A stretch of DNA of 64,000 nucleotides from a virus (IMGVR_UViG_3300042286_000208:6287-70286); one strand, 5' to 3'; counted from the first letter of the stretch, positions 10,834 to 47,598 are shown. Translations and numbers: made by a program. Notes: generated by a model not told the origin, from the sequence alone.

Positions 10834-10883
10834 CAACTGGGCTGGTCGAACACACCCCGGTCTAGTAGACCCTGGTCCACCAA

Positions 10884-10911
10884 CGACGGGGAATTTCCCC
10901 GTCATTTTTTT
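10884..10911 (+). terminator. Intrinsic terminator
   Basis: GACGGGG-AATTT-CCCCGTC followed by T7. Confidence 0.85.
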
Positions 10912-10938: not shown

Positions 10939-12762
10939 ATGAAACTGGAAATACTAGATATAAATAAATTCATCAAAGAAAATGATGTGAAAGAAGTCAA
11001 TAACACTATTTTCTTCATAGGTAACCTCCCTCAACCAGGCGGATTATTTGATCCTGAAATATTTGGTTATTTTACCGAGGAAGAAAAATACAAATATGGA
11101 TATATTGATTTAAAAGATAACTATATTCACCCACTAGTTGTTATAAACCTAATGAGAATGGGTTCTCTTGGATCACTATTACTACAACATGATAGCATCA
11201 AAAAGAAATGAGCAAAAGTTGTAGACGGAAAGATAGTTTATGTCAAAAAGACAGAACCAGGAGCAGAAACGGGAAAAGAATTCTATTGAAACAACTTCGA
11301 TAAAATAGATTGGAATAAATCTCTAGGTTATGTCAGAGAAACAAAAGATGAGTACGAAGAAATAACAGATGAAGCAGCTACAGAAGATGTTGAAGAGCTA
11401 GAAAAATTCATAGATGAAGAAATGGATGATTTTTCAGTATCCAAAGCTGGTCGTATAAATTTTATAAAATCTTTAACAAAACAAGAGTTCTTTGTTAATA
11501 AATGGTTGGTCATTCCTAAAGGATATAGAAATATTTCTAGCGAAAGTAGAACATTGGGCTCAGATATAAACAAAGAGTACAGAAAACTATTAACAAATAT
11601 AAATGCTTTATCTAGATTCTCATCAAGTTCTATTTTTGGACTTACTCAAATCCAAGAATACTTAATTCAAAATGTTATTTTGGTAAACTTATTTAAAGAT
11701 ACGATCGGTTTTATAACAGGAAAAAGAGTAGATTTTGATAAATCAACAAACAAACCAGCCCCAACAACAGGTGTTGCCAAGAACTCTAATTTCCAAAATA
11801 AAATTATCGGCAAATCAATTGATTATAGCTCAAGAAATGTAATCATTGCTCCAACTATGGCAACGAAGAATACTTACAAAGAGGTTGATGCACTTGCTGG
11901 TTATTCGGGAATACCTCTTGCATCAATATGTTCATCATTCCTACCTTTCGTTTTAAAACATTCCTATGATATAATCAGGGATCTCGAAATGAACATCGAG
12001 AGACAAATGTTAAAATGAGATGAGACTTTTATTAGAGTAGAACCTTCTTCTAAATTATTTATAGAAAAGCTATTGAAGAGCTTTATTAAATCAGATAAAG
12101 GAAGGATGGATGGATACAATTTTATTCTTATATTTGAAGATGAGAACAAGAGACAGATAAGAAAAGATCACAAAATGGTAGTAAATGTCGCACACAGTAG
12201 AGAAGAATTTAAAAATAAAACTTATAAAAGAAGACATTTCACTGTAACAGATTTATTTTATCAAGCAGCAGCCAAATCTATTGTTGATAGACATGTGCTT
12301 CTGGTTAGATACCCTGTATTAAACCACTTAAATATATTCCCAACAGGTATTAATCTTCTTTCAACAAAAAAAGAAGACAAAGGAGTTTATTTATTATATA
12401 ATTTTAACGTAAACTGATTAGATTCAAACTTCCCTAACGAAGCAATGTTTTATTTCGATAAATATCCACTTATACCAAACTTTAAAGGCGATAGCATGGA
12501 AGTTTTTGAACCAACAACCGAGAACAACACATTTATAGATGCGTTGATACCTGGAAATAGTTCTCTAAAGAGCCTTAATGGTGACTATGATGGTGATACA
12601 TTATCAGTAATCGGGTTATTTTCAGAAGAAGCTAATAAAGAAGCGAGAGAATATATTAATAGTGCTGGTTATTTTGTTACCAGTACAAATAAAAATATTA
12701 GGTCAATTGACTCTATCGGTAAAGAATATGTTATGGGATTATATATGTTGACGAAGGATTAG
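10939..12762 (+). CDS. Phage multisubunit RNA polymerase beta-prime N-terminal subunit (607 aa, 4 TGA=Trp)
   Basis: Four track ORFs joined by TGA at 11209, 11287, 12016, 12415; catalytic LNGDYDGD (NADFDGD-type), GLFDPEIFG, GKSIDYSSRNVI, RYPV motifs. Confidence 0.9.
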
Positions 12763-12771
12763 GTGAAGGAT

Positions 12772-13296
12772 ATGTTAATTAAAGAAAGTTTTGTTAAAAA
12801 GATTCCTGTGAATCAAGTATTAAAAGAAAACGGGGATGCTATGGAGTATTATATGAATCATCCCGAAGAACATTGAAAAGTCCTAATCGATAAGTTTGAA
12901 GGAAGCAGAGTGAAATTCAAGAACTGATGTGAAAAAGCTTATTTAGGACCCAGAGGATCCAAAGGAGCAGATCAGGCGAAATACGATAAAGCGATGGCAT
13001 ATTTCGATAGTCAACAATCATCTTTAAATGAATCATTTCAATATGAAGATATTTTAAAGATGTCATATGACGATATTCTTACCAAAAACAATGGGAATCT
13101 GATGCAGACGCTAAGAGATTTAAATTCCTTTATGTCATCTATACAGGGAACTGATAATGATGAAGAAAGAAAAGCTTATTTTAAAGCTAAAAACTTTCAC
13201 GTCAGATTAGTCAGAGACACCAACGAAAAAGATCCACAAGAACTAAAAAAGAAAATAGATAAGAAAATTAAAAAAGCAGAGAAAAGAAATAGATAA
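12772..13296 (+). CDS. Hypothetical, probable head protein (174 aa, 2 TGA=Trp)
   Basis: ATG 12772 in frame with track ORF 12994 via two TGA; IKES/LKEN/LNES motifs. Confidence 0.6.
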
Positions 13297-13321: not shown

Positions 13322-13333
13322 TATATATTATTA
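13322..13333 (+). promoter_or_regulatory. Putative early promoter motif TATATATTATWA
   Basis: Recurs before clusters of small genes; heads the 13375-23839 cluster. Confidence 0.5.
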
Positions 13334-13374
13334 ATATGAAAATGTAGTGAAATATATTTGAGGAGGAAAAGCAA

Positions 13375-13656
13375 ATGAGAAAAAGAGAATTACAAAGAAT
13401 AGAACATGAAAAATATTTATTGAGATCAGCATGGTCTAGTTTAAGTTTGAGTGGGTTAAGTCAAGACCTTGATGATGATTTTAAAATTATAGAGAATTAT
13501 TTCATACATAATTCAGGTTCAATCGAAGATGCAAAAAGATCCCTTTATAATGTAAGAGATTATCTTGGTGGCATGGATATATACGTGTCCGAAGGATATG
13601 ATGAATGTTTTGATTATTTTATAAACACTATAAAGACTAAAGAAAGAGGTAACTAA
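13375..13656 (+). CDS. Hypothetical protein
   Basis: GAGGAGG SD, 93-aa ORF. Confidence 0.75.
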   Translation: MRKRELQRIEHEKYLLRSAWSSLSLSGLSQDLDDDFKIIENYFIHNSGSIEDAKRSLYNVRDYLGGMDIYVSEGYDECFDYFINTIKTKERGN

Positions 13657-14295
13657 ATGAAAGTAACTTTATTATCACATACACCAGAAGCTATTAAAGT
13701 GGCATTCACTGCAATAAGAACATGTTATTCAGCAAACGATCAAGATTATATTTGGAATGAAGAATTTGACAAATATAAGGAAAAGAATGATGATCACATT
13801 AGACTTATTAAACAAATTTTAAATCATGGACACACTTCCACACTAGAACATATAACTTTTAATTTTGCAGTCAATGGTGTTAGTAGATCGCTACTGGCAC
13901 AATTAACAAGACATAGAATTGGATTCAGCTATAGTGTTCAAAGTCAGAGATATGTAAAAATGTCTACCGATAGTAAACATGGAACATTTGAATTCGTTAC
14001 ACCTCCTGGTATTATGAGTGTAGATTCATTGTTGGTTTATGATCAAATAATGGAAGAAATACAAAAAGCTTATGATAAATTGGTAGACATGGGTATTCGA
14101 GCAGAGGATGCTAGATACGTTCTACCCAATGCAGCCACAACCAACATAACAATCTCTTTCAATCTCAGAGCATTCCTTGATTTTTACAGTAAAAGAAATC
14201 CAGAGACACACGCACAATGGGAGATTCAAGAACTGGCAGAGAGTTTTAGAAAAGAGATTGAAAAAGCGGAATCGTGGACTAAAGAACTGTTTTAG
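13657..14295 (+). CDS. thyX: Flavin-dependent thymidylate synthase
   Basis: RHRIGFSYSVQSQRY ThyX motif; GHTSTLEH; ARYVLPNA. Confidence 0.95.
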   Translation: MKVTLLSHTPEAIKVAFTAIRTCYSANDQDYIWNEEFDKYKEKNDDHIRLIKQILNHGHTSTLEHITFNFAVNGVSRSLLAQLTRHRIGFSYSVQSQRYVKMSTDSKHGTFEFVTPPGIMSVDSLLVYDQIMEEIQKAYDKLVDMGIRAEDARYVLPNAATTNITISFNLRAFLDFYSKRNPETHAQWEIQELAESFRKEIEKAESWTKELF

Positions 14296-14323
14296 AAAAT
14301 GAAAAAGAGGACGGTGTAAAGTA

Positions 14324-14563
14324 ATGCCAGATCTACATTATCATTATTATTTTAGCGTGAATAAACTATGCGAAACACCAGAGGGTAAATCAAAGTATAT
14401 AAAAAACAAAGCATATTTTGATAGTTTGAATTTAAAAACATGTTATCCAACAAGCTCCAAAGAAAACTGTTACTACTATTGTTTTATTACACCAGCAGGC
14501 CCAAATAGATTTAAACGAGTTACAAAATTGGGAGTTGTGTCACAAATTTATGGATACAACTAA
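14324..14563 (+). CDS. Hypothetical protein, paralog of next gene
   Basis: Shares YYFSVxKLCET...SSKENxYYYC with 14580-14810. Confidence 0.7.
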   Translation: MPDLHYHYYFSVNKLCETPEGKSKYIKNKAYFDSLNLKTCYPTSSKENCYYYCFITPAGPNRFKRVTKLGVVSQIYGYN

Positions 14564-14579
14564 TAATTAAAAAAAGGAG

Positions 14580-14810
14580 ATGTTTGTAATGCCAACACCA
14601 ATTTATTATTTTAGCGTAAAAAAATTATGTGAAACATTATATGGTACTTCAATGTATAAGAAGAATAAAGTATATTTTGATAGACTAGACGGCAGAAGAT
14701 GTTACAAACCAAGTTCAAAAGAAAATGGATACTACTATTGTTCTTTAAAAGCATGGTCAAGAGCAAAAAGAGTTACAAAATTAGCTATAAGAGTAGAATA
14801 TAACTACTAA
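14580..14810 (+). CDS. Hypothetical protein, paralog of previous gene
   Basis: Tandem duplicate; AAAGGAG SD. Confidence 0.7.
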   Translation: MFVMPTPIYYFSVKKLCETLYGTSMYKKNKVYFDRLDGRRCYKPSSKENGYYYCSLKAWSRAKRVTKLAIRVEYNY

Positions 14811-14894
14811 TAAGGAGAGATATAAAATATGAGAACAGTAGAACAAATAGAAATTATACATGAGTGTAAAAAACTCTTAAATGGGGGACAATAA

Positions 14895-16139
14895 ATGAGA
14901 AATTTAGCACATATTGAAAAAGTAAACGATATCAAACCGATTTTTCTAAAAGAAAATAACGTAGAGGCAGATGCAATTTGTCTTTATAGAGTTTTAGGAT
15001 GGTGGGTTGTTGGCAAGAAAGGAGAATACAGTATTGGTGATAACGTAGTGTACATTGAAATTGATTCAAAAGTACCTGCTACAGAAGATCCAAACGATTA
15101 TTTCTATTTCTTGGAGAAAAGAAACTTCAAAGTTAAAACAATGAAATTAAACAAGTTTTATTCCTCTGTGATGCCCGAAGCTGTTATCAGCCAGGGATTG
15201 CTTGTACCTATGGATGTAGTTATGCAAAAAGTAAGATGGGTTAAAGAACCTTCTGAAGGAACTGATGTTACCGATATTCTTAAAATTGAAAAAATTGAAG
15301 ACGAAACGAAAGAAATTCGTATAGTTGATCATTCAAAACAATTCTATAAAAAACATAGTAAATTCTTTAAAACAAAACTCGGAAAATGGTTGATGAAAAA
15401 AGAGTGGTTTAGAAATTTTATTAAAAAAATCACTACAAAAAAAGCACCAATAAAAAAATTCCCATCATATATTACTAAAACAGACGAAACACGTGTTCAA
15501 GCACTACCTAAGTTGTTTGAGCAATTAAGAGACAATAAGACAGTTTTACAAGTAGCAGAAAAACTTGATGGGACTTCATCCACATATGGATTAAGAAAAA
15601 ATGGAAGAAAATTTGATTTTGTTGTATCTTCTAGAAATATTATCCAGGCAGACGAAAGACAAAAAACTTGGTATTCTGATGCTAGCGTAAACTATTATTG
15701 GGAAATGGCAATCAAATATAACATCGAGGAATTATTAAAGAATTTATTCGTCCTTCTCGGTGCAAAAGATTTTGTCTATTTACAAGGAGAAACAATCGGA
15801 CCAGATATTCAGAGCAACAAGTATCATTTGAAAGAAAGAAAGTTATACGCTTTTAACCTTGTAGTGGACGGGAAGAAAATAAACTCCCTTGAAGCTAGAA
15901 TGGATTTACTGGCAGCACAAAAACAGATGAACATCTCTGATGAACAAGCAATGAGCTGGGTTCCTATTCTGGAGGAGAGTTATCTACTTCCAGATACAAT
16001 TGAAGAACTTATGACATATTCAACTGGTAAATCAGTATTATATGACACATTACGTGAAGGTATAGTATTAAGAGATGCAGAAAATACTGTATCTTTTAAA
16101 GCAGTATCTCCAGAATTTTTATTGAAACACAAATTATAG
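14895..16139 (+). CDS. RNA ligase, Rnl2/DRB0094-like
   Basis: EKLDGTS motif I, LQGETIG, REGIVLR, FKAVSPEFLLK; N-terminal OB-like module. Confidence 0.9.
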   Translation: MRNLAHIEKVNDIKPIFLKENNVEADAICLYRVLGWWVVGKKGEYSIGDNVVYIEIDSKVPATEDPNDYFYFLEKRNFKVKTMKLNKFYSSVMPEAVISQGLLVPMDVVMQKVRWVKEPSEGTDVTDILKIEKIEDETKEIRIVDHSKQFYKKHSKFFKTKLGKWLMKKEWFRNFIKKITTKKAPIKKFPSYITKTDETRVQALPKLFEQLRDNKTVLQVAEKLDGTSSTYGLRKNGRKFDFVVSSRNIIQADERQKTWYSDASVNYYWEMAIKYNIEELLKNLFVLLGAKDFVYLQGETIGPDIQSNKYHLKERKLYAFNLVVDGKKINSLEARMDLLAAQKQMNISDEQAMSWVPILEESYLLPDTIEELMTYSTGKSVLYDTLREGIVLRDAENTVSFKAVSPEFLLKHKL

Positions 16140-16160
16140 TTAAGAAAGGAAGTGTCGGTT

Positions 16161-16400
16161 ATGGATTTTAAAGAAGTATTAGAGGCACTTAAAGCAGGTC
16201 TTCCTGTTAAAAGAAAAGAATGGGATGGATATTGGATTCTCGAGAGTAAAAATAAAATTGTTATACATTTGAAAGAAGGAAACGATTTAAATTTACTTGA
16301 CACTGACGACATAATGTTCACTCTTTCACACACCACTAAAAATGATTGGGAGATTGCAACCCCAGAAAATTGCAAAAGATTGAGAGAGGATAAAGAATAG
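16161..16400 (+). CDS. DUF2829/Tad2-like protein (candidate anti-defence sponge)
   Basis: MDFKEVLEALKAGLPVKRKEW...NDWEI matches DUF2829 pattern. Confidence 0.65.
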   Translation: MDFKEVLEALKAGLPVKRKEWDGYWILESKNKIVIHLKEGNDLNLLDTDDIMFTLSHTTKNDWEIATPENCKRLREDKE

Positions 16401-16429
16401 GATAAAACCTATTCTTTATTATATCAATT

Positions 16430-17122
16430 ATGGAAAGAAAAAAATTTGAAGAAACTCAAAAACTAATATCTAGATACGTTATGGTTATAGCCGATGTCAA
16501 AAACTCAAAGGTTATTTTAAAAACACGAGATGGCAGAAAAGCTTTCCAACATTTATTAAATGACACAAGAGAAATATTAGAAAAACCTGAAGTTATTCAA
16601 TTTGAAGATTCTGGTGTTAAATTTAGATTAATAAGAAAAGGTGACTGTATAGGATTTGTTTTTGATAAAAACACAGACTATGACAACATATCTTCTATAC
16701 TAAACGAATGGGACGATTTACTTAAAAAGAGCGGACTAAAATTCCATAGAAATCAATGTGCCATACCTTCTTTAGATAACTATATGGAGCACTTCATTTA
16801 TCTAGAGAAAGATTCTAAGGAAGCAGATATTGAAAACACAGATACTACAAAAAACAAAACAATCAATATATCATTAGAAGTAGATGTAGAGGATTTCATT
16901 GAAGAAGACTACGTTAGAACGGAGATTGAGCATGCTATAAACAGTTATGATTGGCATGTGAATTCTATCAGTGTCAAGACTAATAAACAAAATATAACAA
17001 AAGAAGAAGTACATGAAGCAAGAGAAATTTTGTTTAAATTTGCAACAATAAGCGAGAAGCTTGATTTAATAGAAGGTCGTAAACTAAATAAAAAATTAGG
17101 TAAATTTATTGACGATAAATAA
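16430..17122 (+). CDS. Hypothetical protein with SatD/class III cyclase-like N-terminus
   Basis: VMVIADVKNS ... RKGDCI two-Asp spacing; weak. Confidence 0.35.
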   Translation: MERKKFEETQKLISRYVMVIADVKNSKVILKTRDGRKAFQHLLNDTREILEKPEVIQFEDSGVKFRLIRKGDCIGFVFDKNTDYDNISSILNEWDDLLKKSGLKFHRNQCAIPSLDNYMEHFIYLEKDSKEADIENTDTTKNKTINISLEVDVEDFIEEDYVRTEIEHAINSYDWHVNSISVKTNKQNITKEEVHEAREILFKFATISEKLDLIEGRKLNKKLGKFIDDK

Positions 17123-17133
17123 GGAGATCAATA

Positions 17134-17391
17134 ATGGAAAACAAAATTGAAGTAATAAATTATCAATATTATAACAGAAGTGAATCAGGGAGAACAGATG
17201 ATCAAAAGCTAGAGGTTGTCAAGATCGCTGAAACAAATGAAAAATCTTGTCTGAAGTGCGCACACTTTACAAGAGTAAGTCAAATTGATAACGGCAAATG
17301 CCATGTTCATTATAATAGACATGACGTACACGATGTATGCCCAAGATTCGAAACACCTGAACAATGGGCTAAAAGATTGTTTGGTAAATAA
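17134..17391 (+). CDS. Hypothetical Cys/His-rich protein
   Basis: AAGGAG SD; CLKCAHF...C...C..F. Confidence 0.7.
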   Translation: MENKIEVINYQYYNRSESGRTDDQKLEVVKIAETNEKSCLKCAHFTRVSQIDNGKCHVHYNRHDVHDVCPRFETPEQWAKRLFGK

Positions 17392-17392
17392 T

Positions 17393-18310
17393 ATGTTAAA
17401 AAGAACGCATAATTTCCCAGATAAAGTAACCATCGTATTAAAAACAAAAACAAACCAAGGTTTTATAGCTCTTGATAAAAAATCTATAGAATCCGGGATT
17501 TCTTGGGCTGGATATTATTATGGAAAAGGTGAAAAACCTTATGAAATAATAGAATATGATAATGGTAAATTTACACTGAAATTATCAAAAGCAGCAAGTG
17601 ATTCAAACCAAGGTAGTAAACTATCATTCTGGACACTAGAGGTGACAGCTCCTGACGGCAGAGTATTTGAAGTCGGAATTAACAGCGAGAGTTTAATAGA
17701 AACAATGATTCAAACAACAGTGGCAAACGGTGATATAGAAGGAGAATACTATCTCGGCCGAACAAATGGACAACAGTCTATAGCTAGAAAAGGGTCCACA
17801 TATTATAACGAATATCTTGAAGTCATAGAGACCAAAAAACAACCACTTACTAAAAATTATAAAGTAGGTAATATAATCATTAATAAGAGAGAGGAATATA
17901 TGTTTATAGGTGAATTCCCTTCACATATAAAAGCAACAGTTCCAGATAGCGGTAGTTATTTCAGTAGAGAAGTACTCATCTCTTTATCAAAAAATAAAAA
18001 ACCCACCATGAGATACTTTTATTTAAGAAAAGGATACAGGAAAGAAACATTTGAAGATGGATACATTGTATCCTATGACAATAAAATAGGTGGTAGAATT
18101 TCTGATGATACGGTTATTAGAGAAAAAAATCCCCATATGTTGAAGTATTTTCAATATTTAAAAGAAAAACTTTTAACATGGGAAAATCGCAATTTCTATT
18201 ATACTCAAGATTATTTAAGAGATTATTTTGCTGTAAGAGGAATTACTGAGATTGAGGATGCTGTCAAAGAAATGACTAAACTCAACATACAACATATGTT
18301 AAAAAAATAA
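17393..18310 (+). CDS. Hypothetical protein
   Basis: Long ORF abutting neighbours; ATG 17393 preferred over track start. Confidence 0.75.
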   Translation: MLKRTHNFPDKVTIVLKTKTNQGFIALDKKSIESGISWAGYYYGKGEKPYEIIEYDNGKFTLKLSKAASDSNQGSKLSFWTLEVTAPDGRVFEVGINSESLIETMIQTTVANGDIEGEYYLGRTNGQQSIARKGSTYYNEYLEVIETKKQPLTKNYKVGNIIINKREEYMFIGEFPSHIKATVPDSGSYFSREVLISLSKNKKPTMRYFYLRKGYRKETFEDGYIVSYDNKIGGRISDDTVIREKNPHMLKYFQYLKEKLLTWENRNFYYTQDYLRDYFAVRGITEIEDAVKEMTKLNIQHMLKK

Positions 18311-18331
18311 ATAGTGAAAAGAGGGAATACA

Positions 18332-19078
18332 ATGGACGTATTAGAAAAAATAATCAAACAAAAAAAATATCTAGAAAATTTAGGTTATAATGTTTTATAT
18401 ATGGGTCTATTTGGATCCCAAAACTATGGACTAGATAGTGAAGATAGCGATATTGATCTACGTGCCATTGTATTACCCACATTGGAACAGTTGATCAAAA
18501 AAGAAAGAATTAGCAAACAAATCGAGAATGATCTTGGTTTGATAGATGTTAAAGACATAATTGATTTCTATGAAGTGATAAATAAAGGAAATTTTGCTTA
18601 TATAGAGTCGATACAAACAAAATGGTTTATCGGAGATGAGTATATTAGGAATTTATTTGGTAAAATCAAAGTAAACCTGAGAAGTCTAAAAGGAGATATG
18701 TACACAAAAGCTAGAGTATTTAGATCTCCTTATTCTACGAAAGAGATGAAAAACGGATATGAATCCAAAGAACTTTATCATCTTTTTAGAATGCTATATC
18801 TGATCCAAAGTAGAGATGATAGTATATCATTTATTAATTATAGTGAAGACAAAAAAACAAAACAATATCTTTTAGACATTAAAAATAATAAAGATATGAT
18901 TATAGATTCTCTGGATTTTATTGATATTTCTTCGTTTGAAACAATAAAACCATGGATAGAGGAACAGACAGAAGAGTATATTCCAAGAGAATATAAATAT
19001 GAGCCTGAAGATATAATGGAAGAAGTTGTGGAATATACCAAACAAAAAATAATAAATTTATATATATTATCATCATAA
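18332..19078 (+). CDS. Pol beta-family nucleotidyltransferase
   Basis: GSQNYGLDSEDSDIDLR (GS...DxD) motif. Confidence 0.8.
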   Translation: MDVLEKIIKQKKYLENLGYNVLYMGLFGSQNYGLDSEDSDIDLRAIVLPTLEQLIKKERISKQIENDLGLIDVKDIIDFYEVINKGNFAYIESIQTKWFIGDEYIRNLFGKIKVNLRSLKGDMYTKARVFRSPYSTKEMKNGYESKELYHLFRMLYLIQSRDDSISFINYSEDKKTKQYLLDIKNNKDMIIDSLDFIDISSFETIKPWIEEQTEEYIPREYKYEPEDIMEEVVEYTKQKIINLYILSS

Positions 19079-19088
19079 GGAGAAAATT

Positions 19089-19646
19089 ATGAAACTAAAA
19101 AAAACGTATAAACATCCAGAAGCTGGTGATTATTTTACTTTTGAGACTGATGAAAAAATAGTTGTTCTTATTGGACCAAACGGTGCAGGAAAGACGACTA
19201 TGTTAGATAGTTTCAAGCAACAAATGGAAGAAAATTATAATATAATATATGACAATCCTCAAGAAATCGATGGAAATGTAAGTCACGACGCAATGTTTGA
19301 TCCGAAACATGTTAGTCATAGATGGACATCTGAAGGAGAGCGTATGAGCTACACTCTGGGGAACACTCTTAGAAGAGTAGGTGAATCAGTTCGAAACAAC
19401 AAACCCACAGTGGTTCTGTTTGATAGACTGGATAGTGGTCTTTCCTATGATAGGATAAAAGAAATGGCTGATGTTGTTATCGAATACGTATCAAAAGATG
19501 TTGATTTTATTGCTATAGCAGCAAACTCTTATGAGTTATGTTATGCATTAAAAGATGTCGCAAAATTTTATTGGGTTCCGACGAATGAATGGATAGATTT
19601 ACCTAATTTCGAAGATTTTATCGAAATGTATAAACTTCCTGAATAA
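19089..19646 (+). CDS. ABC-type/P-loop ATPase
   Basis: GPNGAGKT Walker A; VVLFDRLDSGL Walker B-like. Confidence 0.75.
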   Translation: MKLKKTYKHPEAGDYFTFETDEKIVVLIGPNGAGKTTMLDSFKQQMEENYNIIYDNPQEIDGNVSHDAMFDPKHVSHRWTSEGERMSYTLGNTLRRVGESVRNNKPTVVLFDRLDSGLSYDRIKEMADVVIEYVSKDVDFIAIAANSYELCYALKDVAKFYWVPTNEWIDLPNFEDFIEMYKLPE

Positions 19647-19668
19647 GATTGGAACAGAGAGGAGTTTT

Positions 19669-19869
19669 ATGGCTAGAAGATTTGTAATATTAAGTACAGG
19701 TAATGGTAATTTGCTCATCCCTGAAACAAAATATAATAAAAAAGAAGAATTACAAATACATCATGTAATTGGCTATGGAACAAAGAGACGCCTTAGAAAA
19801 GAAGGCTGGGACTTAAGAAAAAAAAACAAAGGAGAAATAAGATGGACGCAGAAAAATATATTGTTGTAA
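19669..19869 (+). CDS. Hypothetical basic protein
   Basis: GAGGAG SD, 66 aa. Confidence 0.6.
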   Translation: MARRFVILSTGNGNLLIPETKYNKKEELQIHHVIGYGTKRRLRKEGWDLRKKNKGEIRWTQKNILL

Positions 19870-20078
19870 AACAAGATGTAATAAAAACAGAATCAGGTGA
19901 AATTCTAACAGTGGTTGAACCATCAGATATCATGATTGTGGAATTTCATGATGGCTTCTTTAATGTTCAAAAACCTATATTTGCTTCTGAACTTGAAGAA
20001 TATCACACTCCTTTAGAGCTACTAAAAAGAAACCCTGATGGATTTTATGAAAGCTTTAAAGTTGAGAGAATGGTCTAA
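19842..20078 (+). CDS. Hypothetical protein
   Basis: AAAGGAG SD, 78 aa. Confidence 0.7.
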   Translation: MDAEKYIVVKQDVIKTESGEILTVVEPSDIMIVEFHDGFFNVQKPIFASELEEYHTPLELLKRNPDGFYESFKVERMV

Positions 20079-20081
20079 ATC

Positions 20082-20648
20082 ATGATTGAAATAAAAATAA
20101 AATATGGATCAGAAGGCTTAAACGGACTACAAACCATACAAGAATTTCTTGTTACTGGTCATGCTATGAATAATGAAGGAGCATCTAGAGAATTGTGTGC
20201 ATCAATATCAATAGCCACAACAATTACAGCAAACGCCATTGTTTTCTTAGCGCTTGAAGGAAATGTTGATGTAGAAAGAGCGTCTGGTTATTTTAGAATT
20301 AATGTTAAAAAAGAGAATCACGCAATTACAGCTTTATTGGAAAACCTTAGATTTACACTAGAGAGTTTAAAAGAACAATATCCTTCTCATGTCGAAGAAA
20401 TTGTTACGGAAGGCTTAATAGAATTGGACATTACAAGCGAACTAAACATGGAAGATCAACTTGATATGATACCAGAGATGGCATTATTAACTATAGGCAA
20501 CATTCCTTTAGAAATACCAAGTCATCCACATTTATCAATGTCAAAAGAGGATATACTAAAAATTCAAAAAGCATATAAGGTAGTTCAAAAAGCATTATCT
20601 GAGTTAAAGACGTTAAAAAAACAAATTGCAGAAAAAGAGGAAAAATAA
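20082..20648 (+). CDS. prp: Prp-like ribosomal-processing cysteine protease with C-terminal extension
   Basis: FLVTGHA...ELCASIS...LKEQYPSHV matches the Prp (DUF464/YsxB) His-Cys dyad pattern. Confidence 0.75.
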   Translation: MIEIKIKYGSEGLNGLQTIQEFLVTGHAMNNEGASRELCASISIATTITANAIVFLALEGNVDVERASGYFRINVKKENHAITALLENLRFTLESLKEQYPSHVEEIVTEGLIELDITSELNMEDQLDMIPEMALLTIGNIPLEIPSHPHLSMSKEDILKIQKAYKVVQKALSELKTLKKQIAEKEEK

Positions 20649-20649
20649 C

Positions 20650-20868
20650 ATGGAGTTTATTTTAACCAAAGAAGAAAAAAGAGTTTGTAAGTTCCTTTAT
20701 AATGCCATGAATGGTAGAAATGGTATTTGTGATTTAACAGATATAGGCGAGGAAGAAGATAAGATTCTTCGCGATCTGGAAGAAAAGGGATATCTTAAAA
20801 ACGATGTTAACTGTATTACGATTTCAAAAGATTTCAAAGATTTCTTAAATCAGACATTCGGAGAATAA
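20650..20868 (+). CDS. Hypothetical protein (possible winged helix)
   Basis: Short ORF, GAGGA SD. Confidence 0.65.
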   Translation: MEFILTKEEKRVCKFLYNAMNGRNGICDLTDIGEEEDKILRDLEEKGYLKNDVNCITISKDFKDFLNQTFGE

Positions 20869-20870
20869 CA

Positions 20871-21122
20871 ATGACAGATGTTCAAATATTTATATTATTG
20901 TTTTGGACATTGATGTCGATGATATTGTCTCTGTATATCTATGAAAAGAGAATTTTAGAAAAACTAAGTGTCTTTGGAAATGCTATGTTTTATCTAGTAT
21001 TTCTGCCAGTAACAATTTTATTTATAGTTGTTGTAATTATTTTTCATATTGGGTTTATTGGTCAATATATTATATTAAACAAAGATAATCGGTTAAGTTA
21101 CAGAAGATTTTTTAAAGAATAG
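20871..21122 (+). CDS. Hypothetical membrane protein (2 TM)
   Basis: Two hydrophobic segments. Confidence 0.7.
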   Translation: MTDVQIFILLFWTLMSMILSLYIYEKRILEKLSVFGNAMFYLVFLPVTILFIVVVIIFHIGFIGQYIILNKDNRLSYRRFFKE

Positions 21123-21129
21123 GAGAAAA

Positions 21130-21570
21130 ATGATGGATTGGGAAAATATGAGCGACATCAAAAAAAGACTAGTCGCAGCAATGATGATTGGTAAGATGTA
21201 CGAAGAAAATATGGGAATATTAGTGAAAAGAGACACTAAATTAATGCTTGAAGATAAAGAATTTCACTATGAAGGCACTGAATTTAGAGCTAAAAAAGGT
21301 GATATACTAGAGCTTGGTGCAACAGAAGAAGACAAAGAAGCATACGAAGTACTAGAGACATCAAACGATGATAACTCAGTTGTTTTGAAAAAGGTTATTT
21401 TCTTTAAAGCAAGGATAACCACATCTTATAATAGTATGGAAGAATTGTGTGTAGCAGGTTCTGATAGAACTGAAGCTATGAAAGCATTAAAGAATTATAT
21501 GAAAAACGGTGATTACACAAGAATCATATCGCTAAATCCTTCTAAGTTCTTTAAACCTTTAGTAAAATAA
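21130..21570 (+). CDS. Hypothetical protein
   Basis: AGGAG SD, 146 aa. Confidence 0.75.
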   Translation: MMDWENMSDIKKRLVAAMMIGKMYEENMGILVKRDTKLMLEDKEFHYEGTEFRAKKGDILELGATEEDKEAYEVLETSNDDNSVVLKKVIFFKARITTSYNSMEELCVAGSDRTEAMKALKNYMKNGDYTRIISLNPSKFFKPLVK

Positions 21571-21747
21571 ATGTCTAAAAAATATAAAATATTTCATGAG
21601 GGAAACTTTGTTAAAGAAGAAGACTACGAGTATTTGATAAGTTGTTCTGAAGAGAATGCGACACTATTCAATGAAAAAGTAGCTGAATCAGTCATGGAGT
21701 TTCTAGGTGGAGATGCTAAAAAAATAAAAGAGGAGGAAAATAAATAA
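21571..21747 (+). CDS. Hypothetical protein (58 aa)
   Basis: Fills gap exactly, ATG to TAA; below track cutoff. Confidence 0.55.
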   Translation: MSKKYKIFHEGNFVKEEDYEYLISCSEENATLFNEKVAESVMEFLGGDAKKIKEEENK

Positions 21748-21823
21748 TGAGAGAATGGTTTTGGATCATTGTGCATTTAGTTGCATTGCTATTATTAATT
21801 GGATTAAGGAGAGAGAATAAATT

Positions 21824-22378
21824 ATGGAAAACTTTCTAGTTGTTTACGAAGATCTTTGGGGGAATAAATTTTCATTTAATACTAATAAAATCGGTGATAC
21901 GATACTAAGTATAATGAATGACTACGAACTCAATCTAGGTCAAGGTGTAGAAATAACAAAAGAAGATATCGAGATGCTTAATAACGATTTCCCATATCAT
22001 TTGTATAAAACAAATAAGATTGGTGATACTATATTGAGTATACTAAAAAGATTTAATTTAAAACTAGAGGAAGATCAAGAATTAGATATTGAAAGACTAA
22101 ACAGTGATTATCCTTTTGAAGCAGGAACATTTGGCCCAGGTTTCTACGACATGTATCTTTACGATAATGACGAGGATGGGGAACCAAATGGAAAAATTAT
22201 GATTTTCTATATTGGTGAAAAAGACTTAGAAGTTGACCTCGCTCAAACAAAGAACAAATTAAAAAAAGCTATTCGGTTGATGCTAGATATCGAAACACTT
22301 CCATACACGAAAAAATATATTATGGATAGTCTAGAACTATCGGAAGAGGAATATAATTCTATTGTTGGGGAAGAATAA
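21824..22378 (+). CDS. Hypothetical protein with internal tandem duplication
   Basis: TNKIGDTILSI...LNxDxP repeated twice. Confidence 0.75.
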   Translation: MENFLVVYEDLWGNKFSFNTNKIGDTILSIMNDYELNLGQGVEITKEDIEMLNNDFPYHLYKTNKIGDTILSILKRFNLKLEEDQELDIERLNSDYPFEAGTFGPGFYDMYLYDNDEDGEPNGKIMIFYIGEKDLEVDLAQTKNKLKKAIRLMLDIETLPYTKKYIMDSLELSEEEYNSIVGEE

Positions 22379-22380
22379 GT

Positions 22381-22710
22381 ATGAAACTAAAAGTTGATAT
22401 CAATGTAGGAGGAAAACCTAAGCATATTGTAGAGATAGTTAAAAATGTTAACATGAGAGAGAACATTCTATCGATCAGAAAAAGAGGAAAAGAAAAAACC
22501 TATGTTTTGATTGAAATTGAAGTCGATGGATGTGAGCCGGAGACAAACTATGCTTTCATATGTGACGATGATGACTTCATCTATGCTTGTTCTGAGAAAA
22601 AACTAGCTGGAGCAATAGTCGAATTAAACTGGCTACATGAAGATGAGTATAGAGTCATAAATAAGAAAAACACAACTCTAACAATTAAGGAGAATACAGA
22701 TGGCGAATAA
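22381..22710 (+). CDS. Hypothetical protein
   Basis: 109-aa ORF in tight operon. Confidence 0.7.
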   Translation: MKLKVDINVGGKPKHIVEIVKNVNMRENILSIRKRGKEKTYVLIEIEVDGCEPETNYAFICDDDDFIYACSEKKLAGAIVELNWLHEDEYRVINKKNTTLTIKENTDGE

Positions 22711-23095
22711 GGATATTGTGATAAAAAGATTTAGTGAGGAATCAGTGAATCTGATTAAAAATGAGAAAAATATAAGCATCTATGTATGGAAAGAAGCTAT
22801 TATGCCATGGCATGAGGTCGAAGAGTTTATTGAACTAATAAAACTAAATAATATCGATGTAATCTATTTCGATGATAAAGAAAATTATCTCAATAAACCT
22901 CAGTGGGTCATAGTTGATAAAGACAATAATTATTGGACAGGAAGTTATGCCCAACATCCATTTGGTGGTAGGGCTAGACTATTTCTTCAATTCAAAAGTT
23001 ATGCAAAAAAATACTTTTCTAAAGAGATTGCTGAGAGATCCGCAAAAAAAATGGCCAATGGCAGAGAAGGAAAATACTTTGTCATATCCGCATAA
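22700..23095 (+). CDS. Hypothetical protein
   Basis: AAGGAG SD, 131 aa. Confidence 0.7.
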   Translation: MANKDIVIKRFSEESVNLIKNEKNISIYVWKEAIMPWHEVEEFIELIKLNNIDVIYFDDKENYLNKPQWVIVDKDNNYWTGSYAQHPFGGRARLFLQFKSYAKKYFSKEIAERSAKKMANGREGKYFVISA

Positions 23096-23096
23096 C

Positions 23097-23282
23097 ATGA
23101 AGAAAACAGACTGTAAACACTATCAAGAAGTAGTTGAAGGGTATCGTCGCCAAACAGGTGACGATACTTTCACTATCGAGCCTGAATTAATAGATGAGGT
23201 TTGTCATCTGGATCCAAATAACCCAAAACATCATAATGAATATGAATGTGAGGGGTGCCCATTTTATGAACAAAGAAAGTAG
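23097..23282 (+). CDS. Hypothetical Cys-rich protein
   Basis: ATG right after previous stop; CKHY...CH...CEGCPFY. Confidence 0.6.
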   Translation: MKKTDCKHYQEVVEGYRRQTGDDTFTIEPELIDEVCHLDPNNPKHHNEYECEGCPFYEQRK

Positions 23283-23290
23283 GTGTTCCG

Positions 23291-23839
23291 ATGAAAGAAC
23301 ATAATAAAAAAAGACTAAAATTTATAATTTTATGGTCAGTGATATTTGCGTTAGTGGTGGGGCTCTTGCCATGGTTAATTACCAGAGAGACTTCACTGTT
23401 TTACATAATACCTTTCGGTTTTATTTTTATACTTATTCTTCTTTTGTCGACATTAATGTATGAAACTCCAACCTATCCCGAAAGAAAGAGAAAAGAAAGC
23501 GAGTTCTATGTTCCTCATTTAGATAACATGGGAACACATATAAGAGAAAGAGCAGAAGAGATGTTAAAAAGGATCCATCCACTGATAAAATTAACAGACG
23601 AATGGGTATATGGTGATGTAGTTATAGAGATGCCTGCACATATCACCGGCAGTGGATTAACACAAGTTCATCACAGAAGATATAGGATTACTTTTGATAC
23701 ATATTATAAAAAAGTCAAATTTGATCTTTATAATGGAGACATGGATCCAAGACTTATATTATGTTTATCGTATATAATGGTAGGTTTAGGATGGATCACT
23801 AATATAGACAGTGAAGACTTCAATAATATAATAAAATAA
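23291..23839 (+). CDS. Hypothetical membrane protein (2 N-terminal TM)
   Basis: Hydrophobic N-terminus, 182 aa. Confidence 0.75.
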   Translation: MKEHNKKRLKFIILWSVIFALVVGLLPWLITRETSLFYIIPFGFIFILILLLSTLMYETPTYPERKRKESEFYVPHLDNMGTHIRERAEEMLKRIHPLIKLTDEWVYGDVVIEMPAHITGSGLTQVHHRRYRITFDTYYKKVKFDLYNGDMDPRLILCLSYIMVGLGWITNIDSEDFNNIIK

Positions 23840-23862
23840 AATCCATTTTTATTTAAATAAAA

Positions 23863-23874
23863 TATATATTATAA
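23863..23874 (+). promoter_or_regulatory. Putative early promoter motif
   Basis: TATATATTATAA. Confidence 0.45.
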
Positions 23875-24022
23875 TAGTGTAGTGAAAGTAGAGGTGATTC
23901 CATGAACGAAGCTCCTGTAACACCATCTAAAGGAGATGGAACTAAGACTTGATAAGTCACAAGTTGATCAGTTTTACAAAAAGGAACATATTTAACAGTT
24001 CCTTTTTTTTGGTTAAACCCTT

Positions 24023-24038
24023 TGAATAATTAATTATA
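24023..24038 (+). promoter_or_regulatory. Putative late/middle promoter motif
   Basis: Exact 16-mer, heads nrdJ operon. Confidence 0.75.
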
Positions 24039-24105
24039 TGGAACATATTATTTTGACATAATATGTTTATTATAAATCTAAAAATAAAAACACGGAGGTT
24101 TTGAG

Positions 24106-24681
24106 ATGAATTACAACATAAAACAGAGCTTTAAGCACACTGATTTACAGGTTGGAGATTTAATGTATGATGCATTAAATGATGTTATGGTTAGAGTTGC
24201 TTATATAGGTAGCGTTGTTAGACAAAAAGTAAAAGAATTAAAGATATCAGGGATGTTAGATATCTCATCAAAAACAACTGAAGTTGAAATAAGACAATAT
24301 GTTTTTGAAGATATGGAAGATAAAATTATTTTTATGATTAATGTTATCGGTAAAGACGGTTTGTTACCACAATTAGAAAATGGAAAACCTAGATTTAGAC
24401 ACTTGATGAGATCAATCGAACCAACGATAATTTGGCCTTCGAATCCACTTCCACTACAACCACAGCCAAATCCTATTTATCCAGCATACCCATCGACACC
24501 TACATATCCAGATCCTAACTATCCTTATTGGACTTGGTGTTCAGATAAATCAGACTCAAGTGATTTAACCGGAACGGTAACGACACAAGGCATGGTGCAA
24601 ATGGATATTTTTGGTGGTGGATTAGATCTAAATACAAATATAAGCATTGATAATTTATCACAACTTGATGCAAAAAACTAA
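24106..24681 (+). CDS. Hypothetical protein with Pro/Tyr-rich segment
   Basis: GGAGG SD; PIYPAYPSTPTYPDPNYP. Confidence 0.75.
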   Translation: MNYNIKQSFKHTDLQVGDLMYDALNDVMVRVAYIGSVVRQKVKELKISGMLDISSKTTEVEIRQYVFEDMEDKIIFMINVIGKDGLLPQLENGKPRFRHLMRSIEPTIIWPSNPLPLQPQPNPIYPAYPSTPTYPDPNYPYWTWCSDKSDSSDLTGTVTTQGMVQMDIFGGGLDLNTNISIDNLSQLDAKN

Positions 24682-24700
24682 GAAAGAGAGAAAATAATAG

Positions 24701-25744
24701 ATGAAGGTAATCAAAAGAAACGGAAAAGTAGAAGCATTTGACATCAGAAAGATTGCTGATGCACTATACAGAGTGTATCGTGAAACAGGGGATAGAACCA
24801 AAACAAAAAAAGTATGTAAAGAACAAGCAAAAGAAATATCTGTAAAATATTTAGAGAATAATGTAGATATTGATATAGAATCTATTCAAGACGATGTAGA
24901 AAATTACTTGATGGAAAATAAAGAATTTACTGCGGCTAGAGCATATATTAAATACCGTGAAAAACAAAAAGCCGATAGAGAAAATCCATGGTCTGACAAC
25001 GATGAAAGACAGGATTTAATCTTAGGTAAGTATTTAATCAAGGGAGAAACAAAGAGAGATTTCTTAAAAAGAATTTCTTTTGGTAATTCAAAATTAGAAA
25101 AGATATTCAGACATAGAGAAGGTATTTGGGGAGGTCGTAACCTTTATGCGATTGGCAGAGAAGGCAACATCACAGGATCTAATTGTTATGTTGCAACAGA
25201 TCCACAAGATTCTCTAGAAGATATTTATAGAGCAGATTTTGAAATTGCTCGTACCTACTCCTATGGTGGTGGACAAGGTATGAACTTGTCTAATATTCGA
25301 CCTAAAGGAGCTAAAGTAAATAATAGTTCAAACACAACACCGGGTGTTATGGTGTTTGCTGAGAAATACTCACACACAACACTTAATACTCAACAAGAAA
25401 GTAGACGTGGTGCATTGATGTTGGTTATGAACATTGATCACCCTGATGTTATTGACTTTATTACATCTAAGTTGGATCTTAATAAGATTAATGGTGCTAA
25501 TATTAGTTTAGCGATCACAGATGATTTTATGAAGGCATATAATGCTGATGAATTATGGACAATGACATTTGAAACAAAATACGAAACTATTAAGAAAACT
25601 ATGAAAGCTAGGGACTTAATGTCACTTGTTTCATATGCCGCTCATACAATGGGAGACCCTGGTGTGATATTTATAGATAGAATGAACGATTATCATCTAT
25701 TATCAGAATATGAAGATGTCGTATTCAGTGCAACAAATCCATGT
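24701..25744 (+). CDS. nrdJ: Class II ribonucleotide reductase, exon 1 (with ATP cone)
   Basis: MKVIKRNG ATP cone, GGGQGMNLS, RRGALM; ends at TNPC. Confidence 0.9.
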
Positions 25745-26669
25745 AAACAAACCCGCTGCATGGCATAAAAGAAATTTTATGAAATAATCGTTAGTGAATT
25801 GCTGGAAAACTCTTATATTAAATAAGAACAATCAGCAGCCAAGCTCTTCAAATAAGAGAAGGTTCAGAGATTAAAACGTAATAAAAATAAAAATATGAAA
25901 TTAGAAAGGATCTAATAATATGAAAAGTTCAGAGTTAAAAGGATATTTAACAGGACTAATACTTGGTGATGGTACTATCGATAAAGGTACAACAAAAAGA
26001 GCATTCAGAATAAAATCTATAAATTTTGATTTTATAGATAAAATAGAAAAGGATTTAAAAGATACAACAAATTGAGATATATTTGTAAAAGAATTTCAAG
26101 CCACAAATAAAGATGGGGTAAATAGAAAAGCATACAAGGAACTTGTTATTAAAGCAAATCCTTATTTTGCAAAAATATATCATTTCTTTTATGATGATTA
26201 TAAAAGAAGAGTGATATCTGAAAAGGCATTAAATTGGTTAAATCCAGAAGGGTTAGCTAATTGGTTTATGTCAGATGGATATATTACTCTAGTTGGAAAA
26301 ACAAAAGGTATTATAAAAGATAGAAGAGTTGAAATTAGTACAGATCGATATAAAAAAGAAGATCTATTAAAAATACAAAATTATTTTAAAACTAATTATG
26401 GATGAGATACTAGTATAATTGATAGAAAAAGAGGAAATCAATACAGAATTAGAATTTCACTATTATCAGCTCAACATTTTTTAACAATGATAGAACCTTA
26501 TGTTACAGAATCTTTTAAACATAAATTAAACTTGGCTTATGAAAATAAACCATACTGAATGACAGAAGAGTATTACCAAGTTATGTTACGAAGCGCTAAC
26601 CCCTTAACGGAATCTAATTAAGATAGACGAAGGTGAAGATATAATCCGATTGTGTTATAATAAACACAG
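25745..26669 (+). mobile_element. Group I intron 1 in nrdJ (925 nt) with homing endonuclease
   Basis: P1 CCATGT/GCATGG with U.G splice pair; GAATTGCTGGAAA, AATCAGCAGCCAAG, GTTCAGAGATTA and AAGATATAATCC core elements; terminal G. Confidence 0.9.
25920..26621 (+). CDS. Intron-encoded LAGLIDADG homing endonuclease (233 aa, 3 TGA=Trp)
   Basis: YLTGLILGDG and GLANWFMSDG motifs; open only if TGA=Trp. Confidence 0.85.
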
Positions 26670-26690
26670 GGCGAACAACCATTAATGGCT
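26670..26690 (+). CDS. nrdJ: nrdJ micro-exon 2 (21 nt, GEQPLMA)
   Basis: Restores TNPC-GEQPL-MANGS-CNLGS catalytic loop with canonical spacing. Confidence 0.9.
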
Positions 26691-26951
26691 TAACCAAACA
26701 CTTAAAAAGTGTAGGCCCTTCATGTAGTAATATATGAAGAAAACCCTTTGAATTGCTGGAAAATCTTACCAAGTAATGTTGAAGACAATCAGCAGCCAAG
26801 CCTCAATAAGAGGAAGGTTCAACGACTATCTCGAAAGAGAGTAGGGTCAAGTGACTCGAAGCGGAGGGAATCCTATTAAGGATTATGATATAGTCTGTTC
26901 TATATGGAAACATATAGAGATAAGAATAACGAACTTATCGCAACAATAAAG
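26691..26951 (+). mobile_element. Group I intron 2 in nrdJ (261 nt, no ORF)
   Basis: P1 GGCT/GGCC with U.G; GAATTGCTGGAAA, AATCAGCAGCCAAG, GTTCAACGACTA and GATATAGTC; terminal G. Confidence 0.9.
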
Positions 26952-28079
26952 AATGGAAGTTGTAATTTAGGAAGTATTAATTTTAATGCTTTTGTCAGAG
27001 AACCATTCACTGACAGGGCATATTTTGACTACGATCGATTTGAAAAAGTAGTCATGGAAATGACATGGGGATTAGACGAACTATTAACTATGTTAGGAGA
27101 CAGACATGCTCTTCAAGCACAAGTACAACATGTGCATGATTGGAGAGAAATAGGGCTCGGAATTATGGGCTTGGCCGACCTTGCTTTAAGCATGAAGCTT
27201 GGGTATGGAACACCAGAGTTTATTGCAGAAACACATAAAATTATGTCTTTCATGGCAAACAAAGCTGCTCAAGCGAGTGCTTTAAGAGCAAAAGAACTTG
27301 GTGTATTCCCACGATATAGCTTTGATAAGGTATCTAAATCTAGATTCTATCAAGAGGTATACACAGAAGAAACAAAAGATATGATTGAGAATTTCGGATT
27401 AAGAAACTCAAGATTGTTAAGTGTTGCACCAACTGGTTCTATTAGTAACATTTTAGGAGTTAGTGGGGGTGTTGAACCGTTTTTCATGTTGTCGTATAAT
27501 AGAACAATTAAATCTATGTTCGAAACAGAAAGAACAATTGAAGTTGTTGAAAAAACTCCGGCTAAACTTATGAAGGAAATGGGCGTCGAACATACATCTG
27601 AATTACCAGAATGGGCTAAAGTAACATCTCAAAATATTGACTTCCAAGACAGAGCTATTGTTCAATCAACAATTCAAAAATATGTAGACACAGCAATTAG
27701 TTCAACATTCAACCTTCACAATTCAGCTACAACTAAAGATGTAGAAAACATCTATACAACAGGTTGGGGTCTTGGGTTTAAAGGAGCAACTGTCTTTAGA
27801 GATAACTGTAAAAAGATTGGTATCTTAACAGGCGGTGGAGAATCATTTGATAAAAATCCCGCACCAAAACCAGGTTTTGAAATTCAAGAAGAGTGGTTCA
27901 ATAAGAAAACAAAAGAAATGAAGCGTTATATCACCTACATTACTGTTGATGATACAGATTATGTAGCTGAGAAAATTGAACGCGAAATGTGTCCTGTTTG
28001 TGGTGAACATCTTGTTAAACAAGGTGGTTGTACTAAATGTAGTAGTCCAGAATGTTACTATGAAAAATGTGCTATTTAA
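26952..28079 (+). CDS. nrdJ: Class II ribonucleotide reductase, exon 3
   Basis: NGSCNLGSINF, REIGLGIMGLAD, SVAPTGSIS, KGATVFRD, C-terminal Cys cluster. Confidence 0.9.
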   Translation, partial: NGSCNLGSINFNAFVREPFTDRAYFDYDRFEKVVMEMTWGLDELLTMLGDRHALQAQVQHVHDWREIGLGIMGLADLALSMKLGYGTPEFIAETHKIMSFMANKAAQASALRAKELGVFPRYSFDKVSKSRFYQEVYTEETKDMIENFGLRNSRLLSVAPTGSISNILGVSGGVEPFFMLSYNRTIKSMFETERTIEVVEKTPAKLMKEMGVEHTSELPEWAKVTSQNIDFQDRAIVQSTIQKYVDTAISSTFNLHNSATTKDVENIYTTGWGLGFKGATVFRDNCKKIGILTGGGESFDKNPAPKPGFEIQEEWFNKKTKEMKRYITYITVDDTDYVAEKIEREMCPVCGEHLVKQGGCTKCSSPECYYEKCAI

Positions 28080-28092
28080 TTAAGGTGTAAAC

Positions 28093-28392
28093 ATGGATAA
28101 ACAAAAGATTATAGAATTGAGTAAAGAAAAGACAATAGCCCTTGATTTTTACGCAGATTGATGTTCTTCATGTGTGATTATAAAACCGTGAGTAGAAGAA
28201 GCAGCGCAAGAATCAGGTGTTGAAACGCTATACATCAATATAGATGAATATGACAAAGATCAATTAAAGTCTAATTTTGGTGTTATAGCAATACCTAATA
28301 TTCAATTCTGACGAGATGGTAAAAAAGTAGATTTTTCCGTTGGAAAATTGCCTAAAGAAAAAATATTCGACAAATTTAACAAATATAAATAG
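28093..28392 (+). CDS. trxA: Thioredoxin (99 aa, 3 TGA=Trp)
   Basis: DFYAD(TGA)CSSC = WCxxC; AIPNI cis-Pro loop; next to nrdJ; missing from track. Confidence 0.9.
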
Positions 28393-43198: not shown

Positions 43199-43212
43199 AG
43201 GAGAAATTTATC

Positions 43213-43590: not shown

Positions 43591-43630
43591 GATTGTTTCT
43601 TTTTCAAACAAAAATAAAAGGAGGGTAATA

Positions 43631-44389: not shown

Positions 44390-44415
44390 TAAATAAAAAT
44401 AAAGAGGTGTTAAGT

Positions 44416-47589: not shown

Positions 47590-47598
47590 TGATTAAAA

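Follow-up and report, generated by a model that had tools for sequence, protein, structure and literature searches.

TGA as a tryptophan codon of late but rarely of early genes in a jumbo phage related to AR9: a probable mid-infection code switch

We analyzed a window of 64,000 nucleotides, bases 6287-70286 of the IMG/VR record IMGVR_UViG_3300042286_000208, in which a gene cluster at positions 13375 to 23839 stands out for its lack of the codon TGA. The full record is linear, 134,286 bp long, 31% GC and 47% complete by CheckV. The cluster is headed by a short sequence word that resembles a phage early promoter (Table 1). Nineteen genes are called in it, with 37 TGG codons and no in-frame TGA, and five extra small open reading frames (ORFs) in its gaps add about five TGG and no TGA. 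Its stop codons are TAA or TAG throughout. The original prediction for this DNA had put the cluster at about 44 tryptophan codons, all of them TGG, with no TGA stops, and our counts come close to it. The other two frames of the same genes contain 61 and 153 TGA (214 in total), and because it is common in both, its absence from the cluster is specific to the reading frame.

Scanning viral contigs for the late promoter word described below returned a companion record, IMGVR_UViG_3300042286_000220 (124,311 bp, CheckV 48%), with about 29 copies of that word. The last 127 nt of the companion (124185-124311) repeat the end of the window's record (genome 134160-134286) in reverse complement, without a mismatch. 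The two records match in GC content, have both promoter words in common and complement each other in gene content. Judged from these sequences, the records very probably represent a single phage of roughly 270 kb or more that was assembled as two contigs, and we refer to their 258,470-bp union as the joined genome. A scan for contigs bridging its two outer ends found none. Contigs of relatives (L260 and L261) continue for about 10 kb of genes beyond the companion's free end, without tRNAs and stopping short of the tail-fibre gene with which the window's record begins. The break between the two records falls near a region of retron/non-coding RNA repeats.

TGA is read as tryptophan in this phage. 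Genes were called under genetic code 4, with starts chosen by ribosome-binding site alone, and long ORFs take up 0.80 of the window under code 4, compared to 0.65 under code 11 and 0.68 under code 15. A Dda-like helicase has TGA at codons 28 and 282, where six of six and five of five aligned standard-code phages have tryptophan; these phages include AR9, two Staphylococcus phages, one Listeria phage and one Sinorhizobium phage. The active site of a thioredoxin likewise places TGA at a tryptophan (Table 1). A relative from other metagenomes, L121, whose RNA polymerase (RNAP) beta'-N subunit is 92% identical, also requires TGA to encode tryptophan. The TGA positions of this subunit are tryptophan in relatives and swap with TGG in L121. 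Overall, TGA and TGG are swapped between the phage and L121 at 7 of 11 aligned tryptophan codons of late genes and at none of 8 in early genes. Total tryptophan content (TGA plus TGG) is 0.98% of codons in the early class and 0.91% in the late class. For annotation, code 4 is needed genome-wide, and the early genes are code-neutral.

The two expression classes were defined by promoter words. The early word, TATATATTAT, has 38 copies in the joined genome, 24 of them in the 134-kb record, where about 6 are expected. It lies mostly directly upstream of operons, and 21 of its 32 intergenic copies have a G after six further nucleotides. By its letters, the complete motif TATATATTAT-6N-G matches the early consensus of phage AR9, AAATATATATTAT-(6N)-G(+1), which was mapped by differential RNA sequencing (dRNA-seq) and primer extension (PMC5312081). 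The second word, TTGAATAATTAATTATA, is an invariant 16-mer with 52 copies in the joined genome, nearly all of them 10-70 nt upstream of a ribosome-binding site, and its core GAATAATTAATTAT occurs 17 times in the window. Because the 16-mer precedes capsid, sheath, terminase, tail and virion RNAP genes, we take it to be the late word. Both words keep their syntenic positions in relatives with a tryptophan-tRNA ligase (TrpRS) that is only 69-76% identical. Three operons of the window carry an early word no more than 400 nt upstream of a late word (23863/24024, 30655/30727 and 45144/45207), with G(+1) present only in the early word at 23863. In these tandem-promoter operons, the TGA-free genes for nrdJ, UvsX and the helicase lie among endonuclease, thioredoxin and small genes that carry TGA.

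Each gene was given the class of the closest intergenic motif upstream on its own strand, with the early word applied in its strict form. Across the joined genome, early-class genes contain 11 TGA and 184 TGG codons (5.6% TGA), compared to 192 TGA and 305 TGG in late-class genes (38.6% TGA; Fisher P = 6e-21; gene-level Mann-Whitney P = 4e-8). Within the window the counts are 1 TGA and 52 TGG in 26 early genes and 59 TGA and 86 TGG in 52 late genes. The split was unchanged under three promoter rules, including looser ones. TGA use therefore depends strongly on promoter class, as the original prediction had anticipated; when we tested for it, independence from expression class was not found. We considered whether the TGAs of early-class genes might be true stops and dropped this idea, since there are only 11, spread from N- to C-terminus, too few to test.

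The absence of TGA from the 13375-23839 cluster is real and far beyond chance. A TGA-free run of 43 TGG codons extends from 13432 to 25556 in the window and is one of four runs of at least 30 in the joined genome. When the labels of the 729 tryptophan codons of the joined genome were shuffled, the longest run averaged 15.5, and a run of 37 or more had a probability of 3.5e-4. Heterogeneity among genes gave a chi2 of 397, compared to a maximum of 269 in 5000 permutations, none of which was higher. The boundary coincides with an operon edge: the sequence at 12763-13296 has 2 TGA, and from 13375 onward there are none. Codon counts also bear out the other genes that had been named as TGA-free, namely the nrdJ exons, UvsX/RecA, the helicase, Thg1, topA and the second early-motif cluster. 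Those named as TGA-rich were recounted with the same result: the large late protein that the original prediction called a baseplate protein, the virion protein, RNAP beta'-N and the endonuclease genes (Table 1). The single exception that it listed, a small gene at 51687 that follows an early motif yet has a TGA, holds the sole early-class TGA in the window.

These shares can be set against a mutational baseline. Among the codons for Lys, Glu, Gln, Leu (TTR) and Arg (AGR), those ending in A make up 76-93%, with no difference between the classes, so mutation bias alone would put TGA near 80% of tryptophan codons. This supports the earlier expectation that in a natively code-4, AT-rich host TGA would dominate everywhere. 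Measured against this baseline, TGA makes up 5.6-6.6% of tryptophan codons in early genes and 38.6-40.5% in late genes. We conclude that selection acts against TGA throughout the genome and that in early genes it is almost absolute.

The original prediction also held TGA to be common in late genes. This is true for many of them, including (as TGA/TGG) the terminase (7/7), the tail fibre (15/5), a 1409-residue protein (17/7) and the endonucleases, but not for the major head protein and the tail sheath, both late and both TGA-free. None of their 13 combined tryptophan codons is TGA (P of about 0.002 at the late-class rate). Two further late genes avoid TGA, those of a GroEL-like chaperonin (0/1) and of another large virion protein (0/4). 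In RNAP beta'-N, the two invariant tryptophans are encoded by TGG, and the four at variable positions, where some relatives have Y, H, I or N, by TGA. These patterns suggest that decoding TGA is costly or leaky. Because TGA lies well below about 80% even in late genes, and because the abundant capsid and sheath avoid it, suppression is probably imperfect.

The RNAP genes divide in the same manner as the promoter classes. Pieces matching chains d and C of structure 7S00, the AR9 non-virion RNAP (nvRNAP; 5e-34 and 3e-62), belong to the early class and are TGA-free. The other beta/beta' pieces have 4 and 5 TGA and match PHROG RNAP families, not nvRNAP structures; RNAP beta'-N had no match among the AR9 nvRNAP chains. 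In AR9 and phiKZ, the non-virion RNAP is made early and transcribes the late genes, and the virion RNAP is made late and packaged (PMC5312081). A TGA-free non-virion RNAP and a putative virion RNAP with TGA fit the functional logic of a code switch, as does the TGA-free TrpRS gene behind its conserved early promoter. Between a late gene and the beta'-N gene, at 10838-10900 of the window, lies a DUF3800-XI RNA (Rfam 54.9 bits; gathering score 37.8).

Table 1. Positions of the genes, promoters and other elements of the phage (window coordinates unless marked otherwise)
Feature	Position	Strand	TGA/TGG	Remarks
Large late protein, 1488 aa	787-5253	-	10/5	late motif at 5959 (-)
RNAP beta'-N, second (virion-type) polymerase	10939-12762	+	4/2	phrog_2986
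Early motif TATATATTAT-6N-G	13322-13338	+		heads the TGA-free cluster
Early gene cluster	13375-23839	+		ThyX, RNA ligase, nucleotidyltransferase, P-loop ATPase, Prp-like protease, others
Late promoter core GAATAATTAATTAT	24024-24037	+		160 nt downstream of early motif 23863; dual-promoter operon
nrdJ-type reductase, two exons	24701-25768, 26904-28079	+	TGA-free	PHROGs, codon counts
Group I intron splitting nrdJ	25769-26903			Rfam RF00028 match at 26682-26917
LAGLIDADG homing endonuclease ORF in nrdJ intron	25920-26621		3 TGA	
Thioredoxin	28093-28392	+	3/0	tryptophan of W-CxxC active site is TGA
Virion / head-tail joining protein	35913-37577	+	6/1	late motif directly upstream
Major head protein	38943-40655	-	0/8	late-motif operon; phrog_20655, 5e-62
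Second early-motif cluster	42902-44742	+	0/9	motif at 42851; 4 genes; starts supported by ribosome-binding sites
Helicase	49494-50930		TGA-free	
Small early-class gene, 79 aa	51687-51926	+	1 TGA	W50
Endonuclease-like gene	53785-54669	+	5/2	late motif upstream; weak sub-threshold treble-clef zinc finger match
topA	54867-56879		TGA-free	downstream of endonuclease-like gene
Tail sheath	companion 46547-48145		0/5	late
tRNA genes	companion 83.8-104.2 kb (joined 154232-173326); genome 99932-100008			
TrpRS	companion 109724-110719 (= L242:1363-2358)	-	0 TGA	TIGR00233, 232 bits (cut-off 177)

No family match was found for the 1488-residue late protein. The phage encodes a TrpRS, whose gene follows two others behind a strict early word; this early promoter is conserved. 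Next to it lie an RNA-repair 'Swiss Army Knife' HAD domain and proteins of unknown function, with no tRNA nearby. The TrpRS is conserved in the phage's relatives, the recoded lineage, at 59-83% identity; it was not found in five IMG/VR relatives that are more distant and lack a clear sign of recoding, nor, as far as searches went, in AR9 and its cultured relatives. The joined genome carries 28 tRNAs, at least one for each of the 20 amino acids. Most have U34 or G34 anticodons, and the set includes a tRNA-Trp(CCA), a rare tRNA-Ile(UAU) and four CAU tRNAs. The tRNA-Trp(CCA) opens the tRNA array, with two tandem late words about 300-400 nt upstream of it. Its D-stem has a U11-A24 pair like that of the classical Hirsh UGA suppressor, a likeness that is not diagnostic. 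A metagenome scan for a tRNA-Trp with the first anticodon base left free found nothing, and a metagenome scan with the TrpRS gave distant homologues only. At the tRNA-Trp site of one relative (contig L251, positions 8322-8393; ENA ERZ27315067), behind a late promoter, we noticed an odd tRNA-like gene, which ARAGORN calls tRNA-Phe(AAA); two of its stems contain mismatches, and position 37 is a pyrimidine.

We consider it likely that this is an AR9/PBS1-type jumbo phage that switches the meaning of TGA in mid-infection, probably in a standard-code Bacillota host. An injected virion RNAP would read the early promoters. Early genes would then be translated by the unmodified code-11 host, where TGA is a stop, and selection would remove it from sense positions and from gene ends alike. 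Among the early products would be the non-virion RNAP and the phage TrpRS, and the non-virion RNAP would then read the late 16-mer promoter. By the late phase, some decoding agent would have the cell read TGA as tryptophan, so that many late genes could use it at about 40% of their tryptophan codons; those that do include the tail fibre, baseplate-region proteins, terminase, virion RNAP and homing endonucleases. With timing already set by the promoters, the codon split may act as a constraint and not as a timer. As first proposed, late proteins would be truncated until the phage supplies suppression. The promoter-class dependence and the codon baseline favor a switch, but truncation fits only part of the late set, as the abundant late proteins avoid TGA. 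A Bacillota host is hinted at by the cultured relatives, by strong AGGAGG and GGTGA ribosome-binding sites and by TrpRS neighbors, which come from metagenome-assembled genomes of Acholeplasmatales and Bacilli and from Bacillota clusters. A genome scan with the TrpRS using non-conserved peptide words returned only three Candidate Phyla Radiation (CPR) genomes at 33-34% identity and was uninformative on the host.

Several observations weigh against this account. The sole phage tRNA-Trp has an ordinary CCA anticodon, and no tRNA with a UCA anticodon was found in the approximately 258 kb of the joined genome, which leaves at least 10 kb of the phage genome outside. This search used ARAGORN (default, intron-aware and with a lowered threshold), Rfam and a custom pattern combining T-arm and anticodon arm. 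The tRNA arrays of relatives also yielded no UCA tRNA, and one of them likewise has a tRNA-Trp(CCA). The U11-A24 pair was rejected as a recoding adaptation, as the tRNA-Trp(CCA) of an IMG/VR relative without a clear sign of recoding has it too. In the same approximately 258 kb we found neither RF-1 nor PCRF domains, the domains of release factors 1 and 2 (RF1 and RF2), and no candidate for an RF2 inhibitor. Thioredoxin and other TGA-bearing genes lie within operons that also carry an early motif. The nearest named cellular TrpRS come from metagenome-assembled genomes of Acholeplasmatales and Bacilli, a mollicute-related neighborhood, and a host-supplied tRNA-Trp(UCA) would explain the missing suppressor.

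The last two points, together with the lack of a phage tRNA(UCA) or release factor and a minimal 28-tRNA set that we take to resemble the mollicute type, favor a mycoplasma-like Bacilli host with native code 4, whose own tRNA-Trp(UCA) would read TGA throughout, with the class difference due to some other cause. We think this improbable. Mutation bias in such a host should have filled both classes with TGA, yet its share is low in both, and a near-total, frame-specific avoidance in about 100 early genes would be left without a cause. Mycoplasmatales, which natively use code 4 and lack RF2, have TGA as the main tryptophan codon genome-wide; in this phage, unlike there, it is a minority codon that is almost absent from one expression class. 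An adapted phage would be expected to carry tRNA-Trp(UCA) rather than CCA, Acholeplasmatales themselves use the standard code, and a phage of more than 258 kb would be unusual in a cell whose genome is about 1 Mb long. The missing UCA tRNA could instead mean that no such suppressor is used. The early TrpRS and the tRNA-Trp(CCA) behind its late promoter would then read UGA through C-A wobble, for which the U11-A24 pair shared with the Hirsh suppressor may speak, or through modification or editing of C34, after a phage protein has neutralized host RF2, and leaky decoding of this kind would keep the most abundant late proteins free of TGA. We regard this mechanism as doubtful.

Expression level rather than timing could also set TGA use, if TGA were always slow or leaky and purged from highly expressed genes, with early genes happening to be such genes. 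The TGA-free head protein and sheath are what this would produce, as are the deficit of TGA below mutational expectation even in late genes and the reservation of TGG for invariant tryptophans in RNAP beta'-N. Against it, about 90 early-class genes, whatever their size or function and down to small accessory ORFs, are almost without TGA, low-copy and high-copy late genes differ among themselves, and the class boundary is sharp at operon edges. Expression level is improbable as the cause in place of timing and fits better as a second layer above it. Another possibility is mosaic origin, in which a phage of a code-4 host was the source of the TGA-rich modules, and the TGA-free ones would be code-11 DNA retained from an ancestor and still out of equilibrium. 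The TGA-rich homing endonucleases are indeed mobile, and more distant IMG/VR relatives lack a clear sign of recoding. However, TGA and TGG swap freely between close relatives in core, vertically inherited late genes such as that of the virion RNAP, so the state turns over quickly and is not a frozen import, and GC content and other codon use are equal in both classes. We therefore judge a mosaic origin very improbable.

The signature of a code switch is already known, and this phage is an unusually well resolved case of it. Borges et al. (bioRxiv 10.1101/2021.08.26.457843) described the same pattern, with a model of a mid-infection switch, for TGA- and TAG-recoded phages. They reported large genomes with recoded late modules scattered through them, TGA no longer used as a stop, a TrpRS in two Jade genomes, and a TGA suppressor tRNA detectable in only 35% of code-4 phage genomes. 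Like the Agate and Jade TGA-recoded gut phages, the phage studied here uses TGA for tryptophan in structural and late modules, keeps its replication genes compatible with the standard code and has given up TGA as a stop. Unlike those phages as described, it is of the AR9 type, with two RNAPs and sharply defined early and late promoter words. Its TrpRS is encoded in the standard code, as in the Jade-type code-change operon of TrpRS, RF1 and tRNA-UCA, but has neither RF1 nor a tRNA(UCA) beside it. The phage 'code-change' pair AP1 TrpRS:tRNA-Trp(UCA) was shown to insert tryptophan at UGA, with competition from RF2 as the limiting factor (PMC12636597). A phage-borne TrpRS tied to TGA-to-tryptophan recoding is common to that system and this phage, although no UCA partner was found here and any partner would have a CCA anticodon. 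The TAG-recoded phages of the crAss-like and Lak groups also recode late and structural genes but not early and replication genes, and a mid-infection switch has been modeled for them; they differ in belonging to other phage groups, in reading TAG as glutamine and in usually having a suppressor tRNA(CUA).

With AR9 and PBS1 (Lavysh et al. 2017, PMC5312081), the phage shares a near-identical early consensus and a split non-virion RNAP, next to which it has a second, putatively virion-type RNAP set. Like AR9, it places early and late promoters together on operons for continuously needed genes, has a genome near 250 kb, and carries a homologous helicase and nvRNAP. AR9, in contrast, uses the standard code. 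Its late promoter, AACA-(6N)-TA/G, is related in role but different as a word, since the invariant 16-mer contains at best a variant, AATA-(6N)-TA. By helicase, the nearest cultured relatives are jumbo phages of Staphylococcus, Bacillus (AR9 and PBS1) and Listeria. The nearest IMG/VR relatives by RNAP beta'-N, at no more than 34% identity, show no clear sign of recoding, and the TGA-free cluster had no megablast match among GenBank phages.

For most described recoded phages, early and late genes have been guessed from gene function; here the split is tied to transcription class gene by gene. Our analysis adds a genome-wide test against an experimentally anchored promoter word, a mutational baseline, the contrast between nvRNAP and virion RNAP, the TGA-free capsid and sheath, and a companion contig with a TrpRS and a tRNA-Trp(CCA) in which no UCA suppressor was found. 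The phage thus offers a clean quantitative example of the code-switch model with its limits included, in that capsid and sheath avoid TGA and TGA stays below mutational equilibrium. It is also a good candidate for learning how TGA is decoded in the many recoded phages without a suppressor tRNA.

A few other genes were noticed in passing. In the window these are a protein with a trigger-factor-like N-domain (7070-8434), the early-class Prp-like cysteine protease of the TGA-free cluster (20082-20648), a transporter of the AI-2E family (47599-48795) and a PTH2-like peptidyl-tRNA hydrolase with one TGA (59883-60197). The GroEL-like chaperonin lies at 54189-56090 of the companion.

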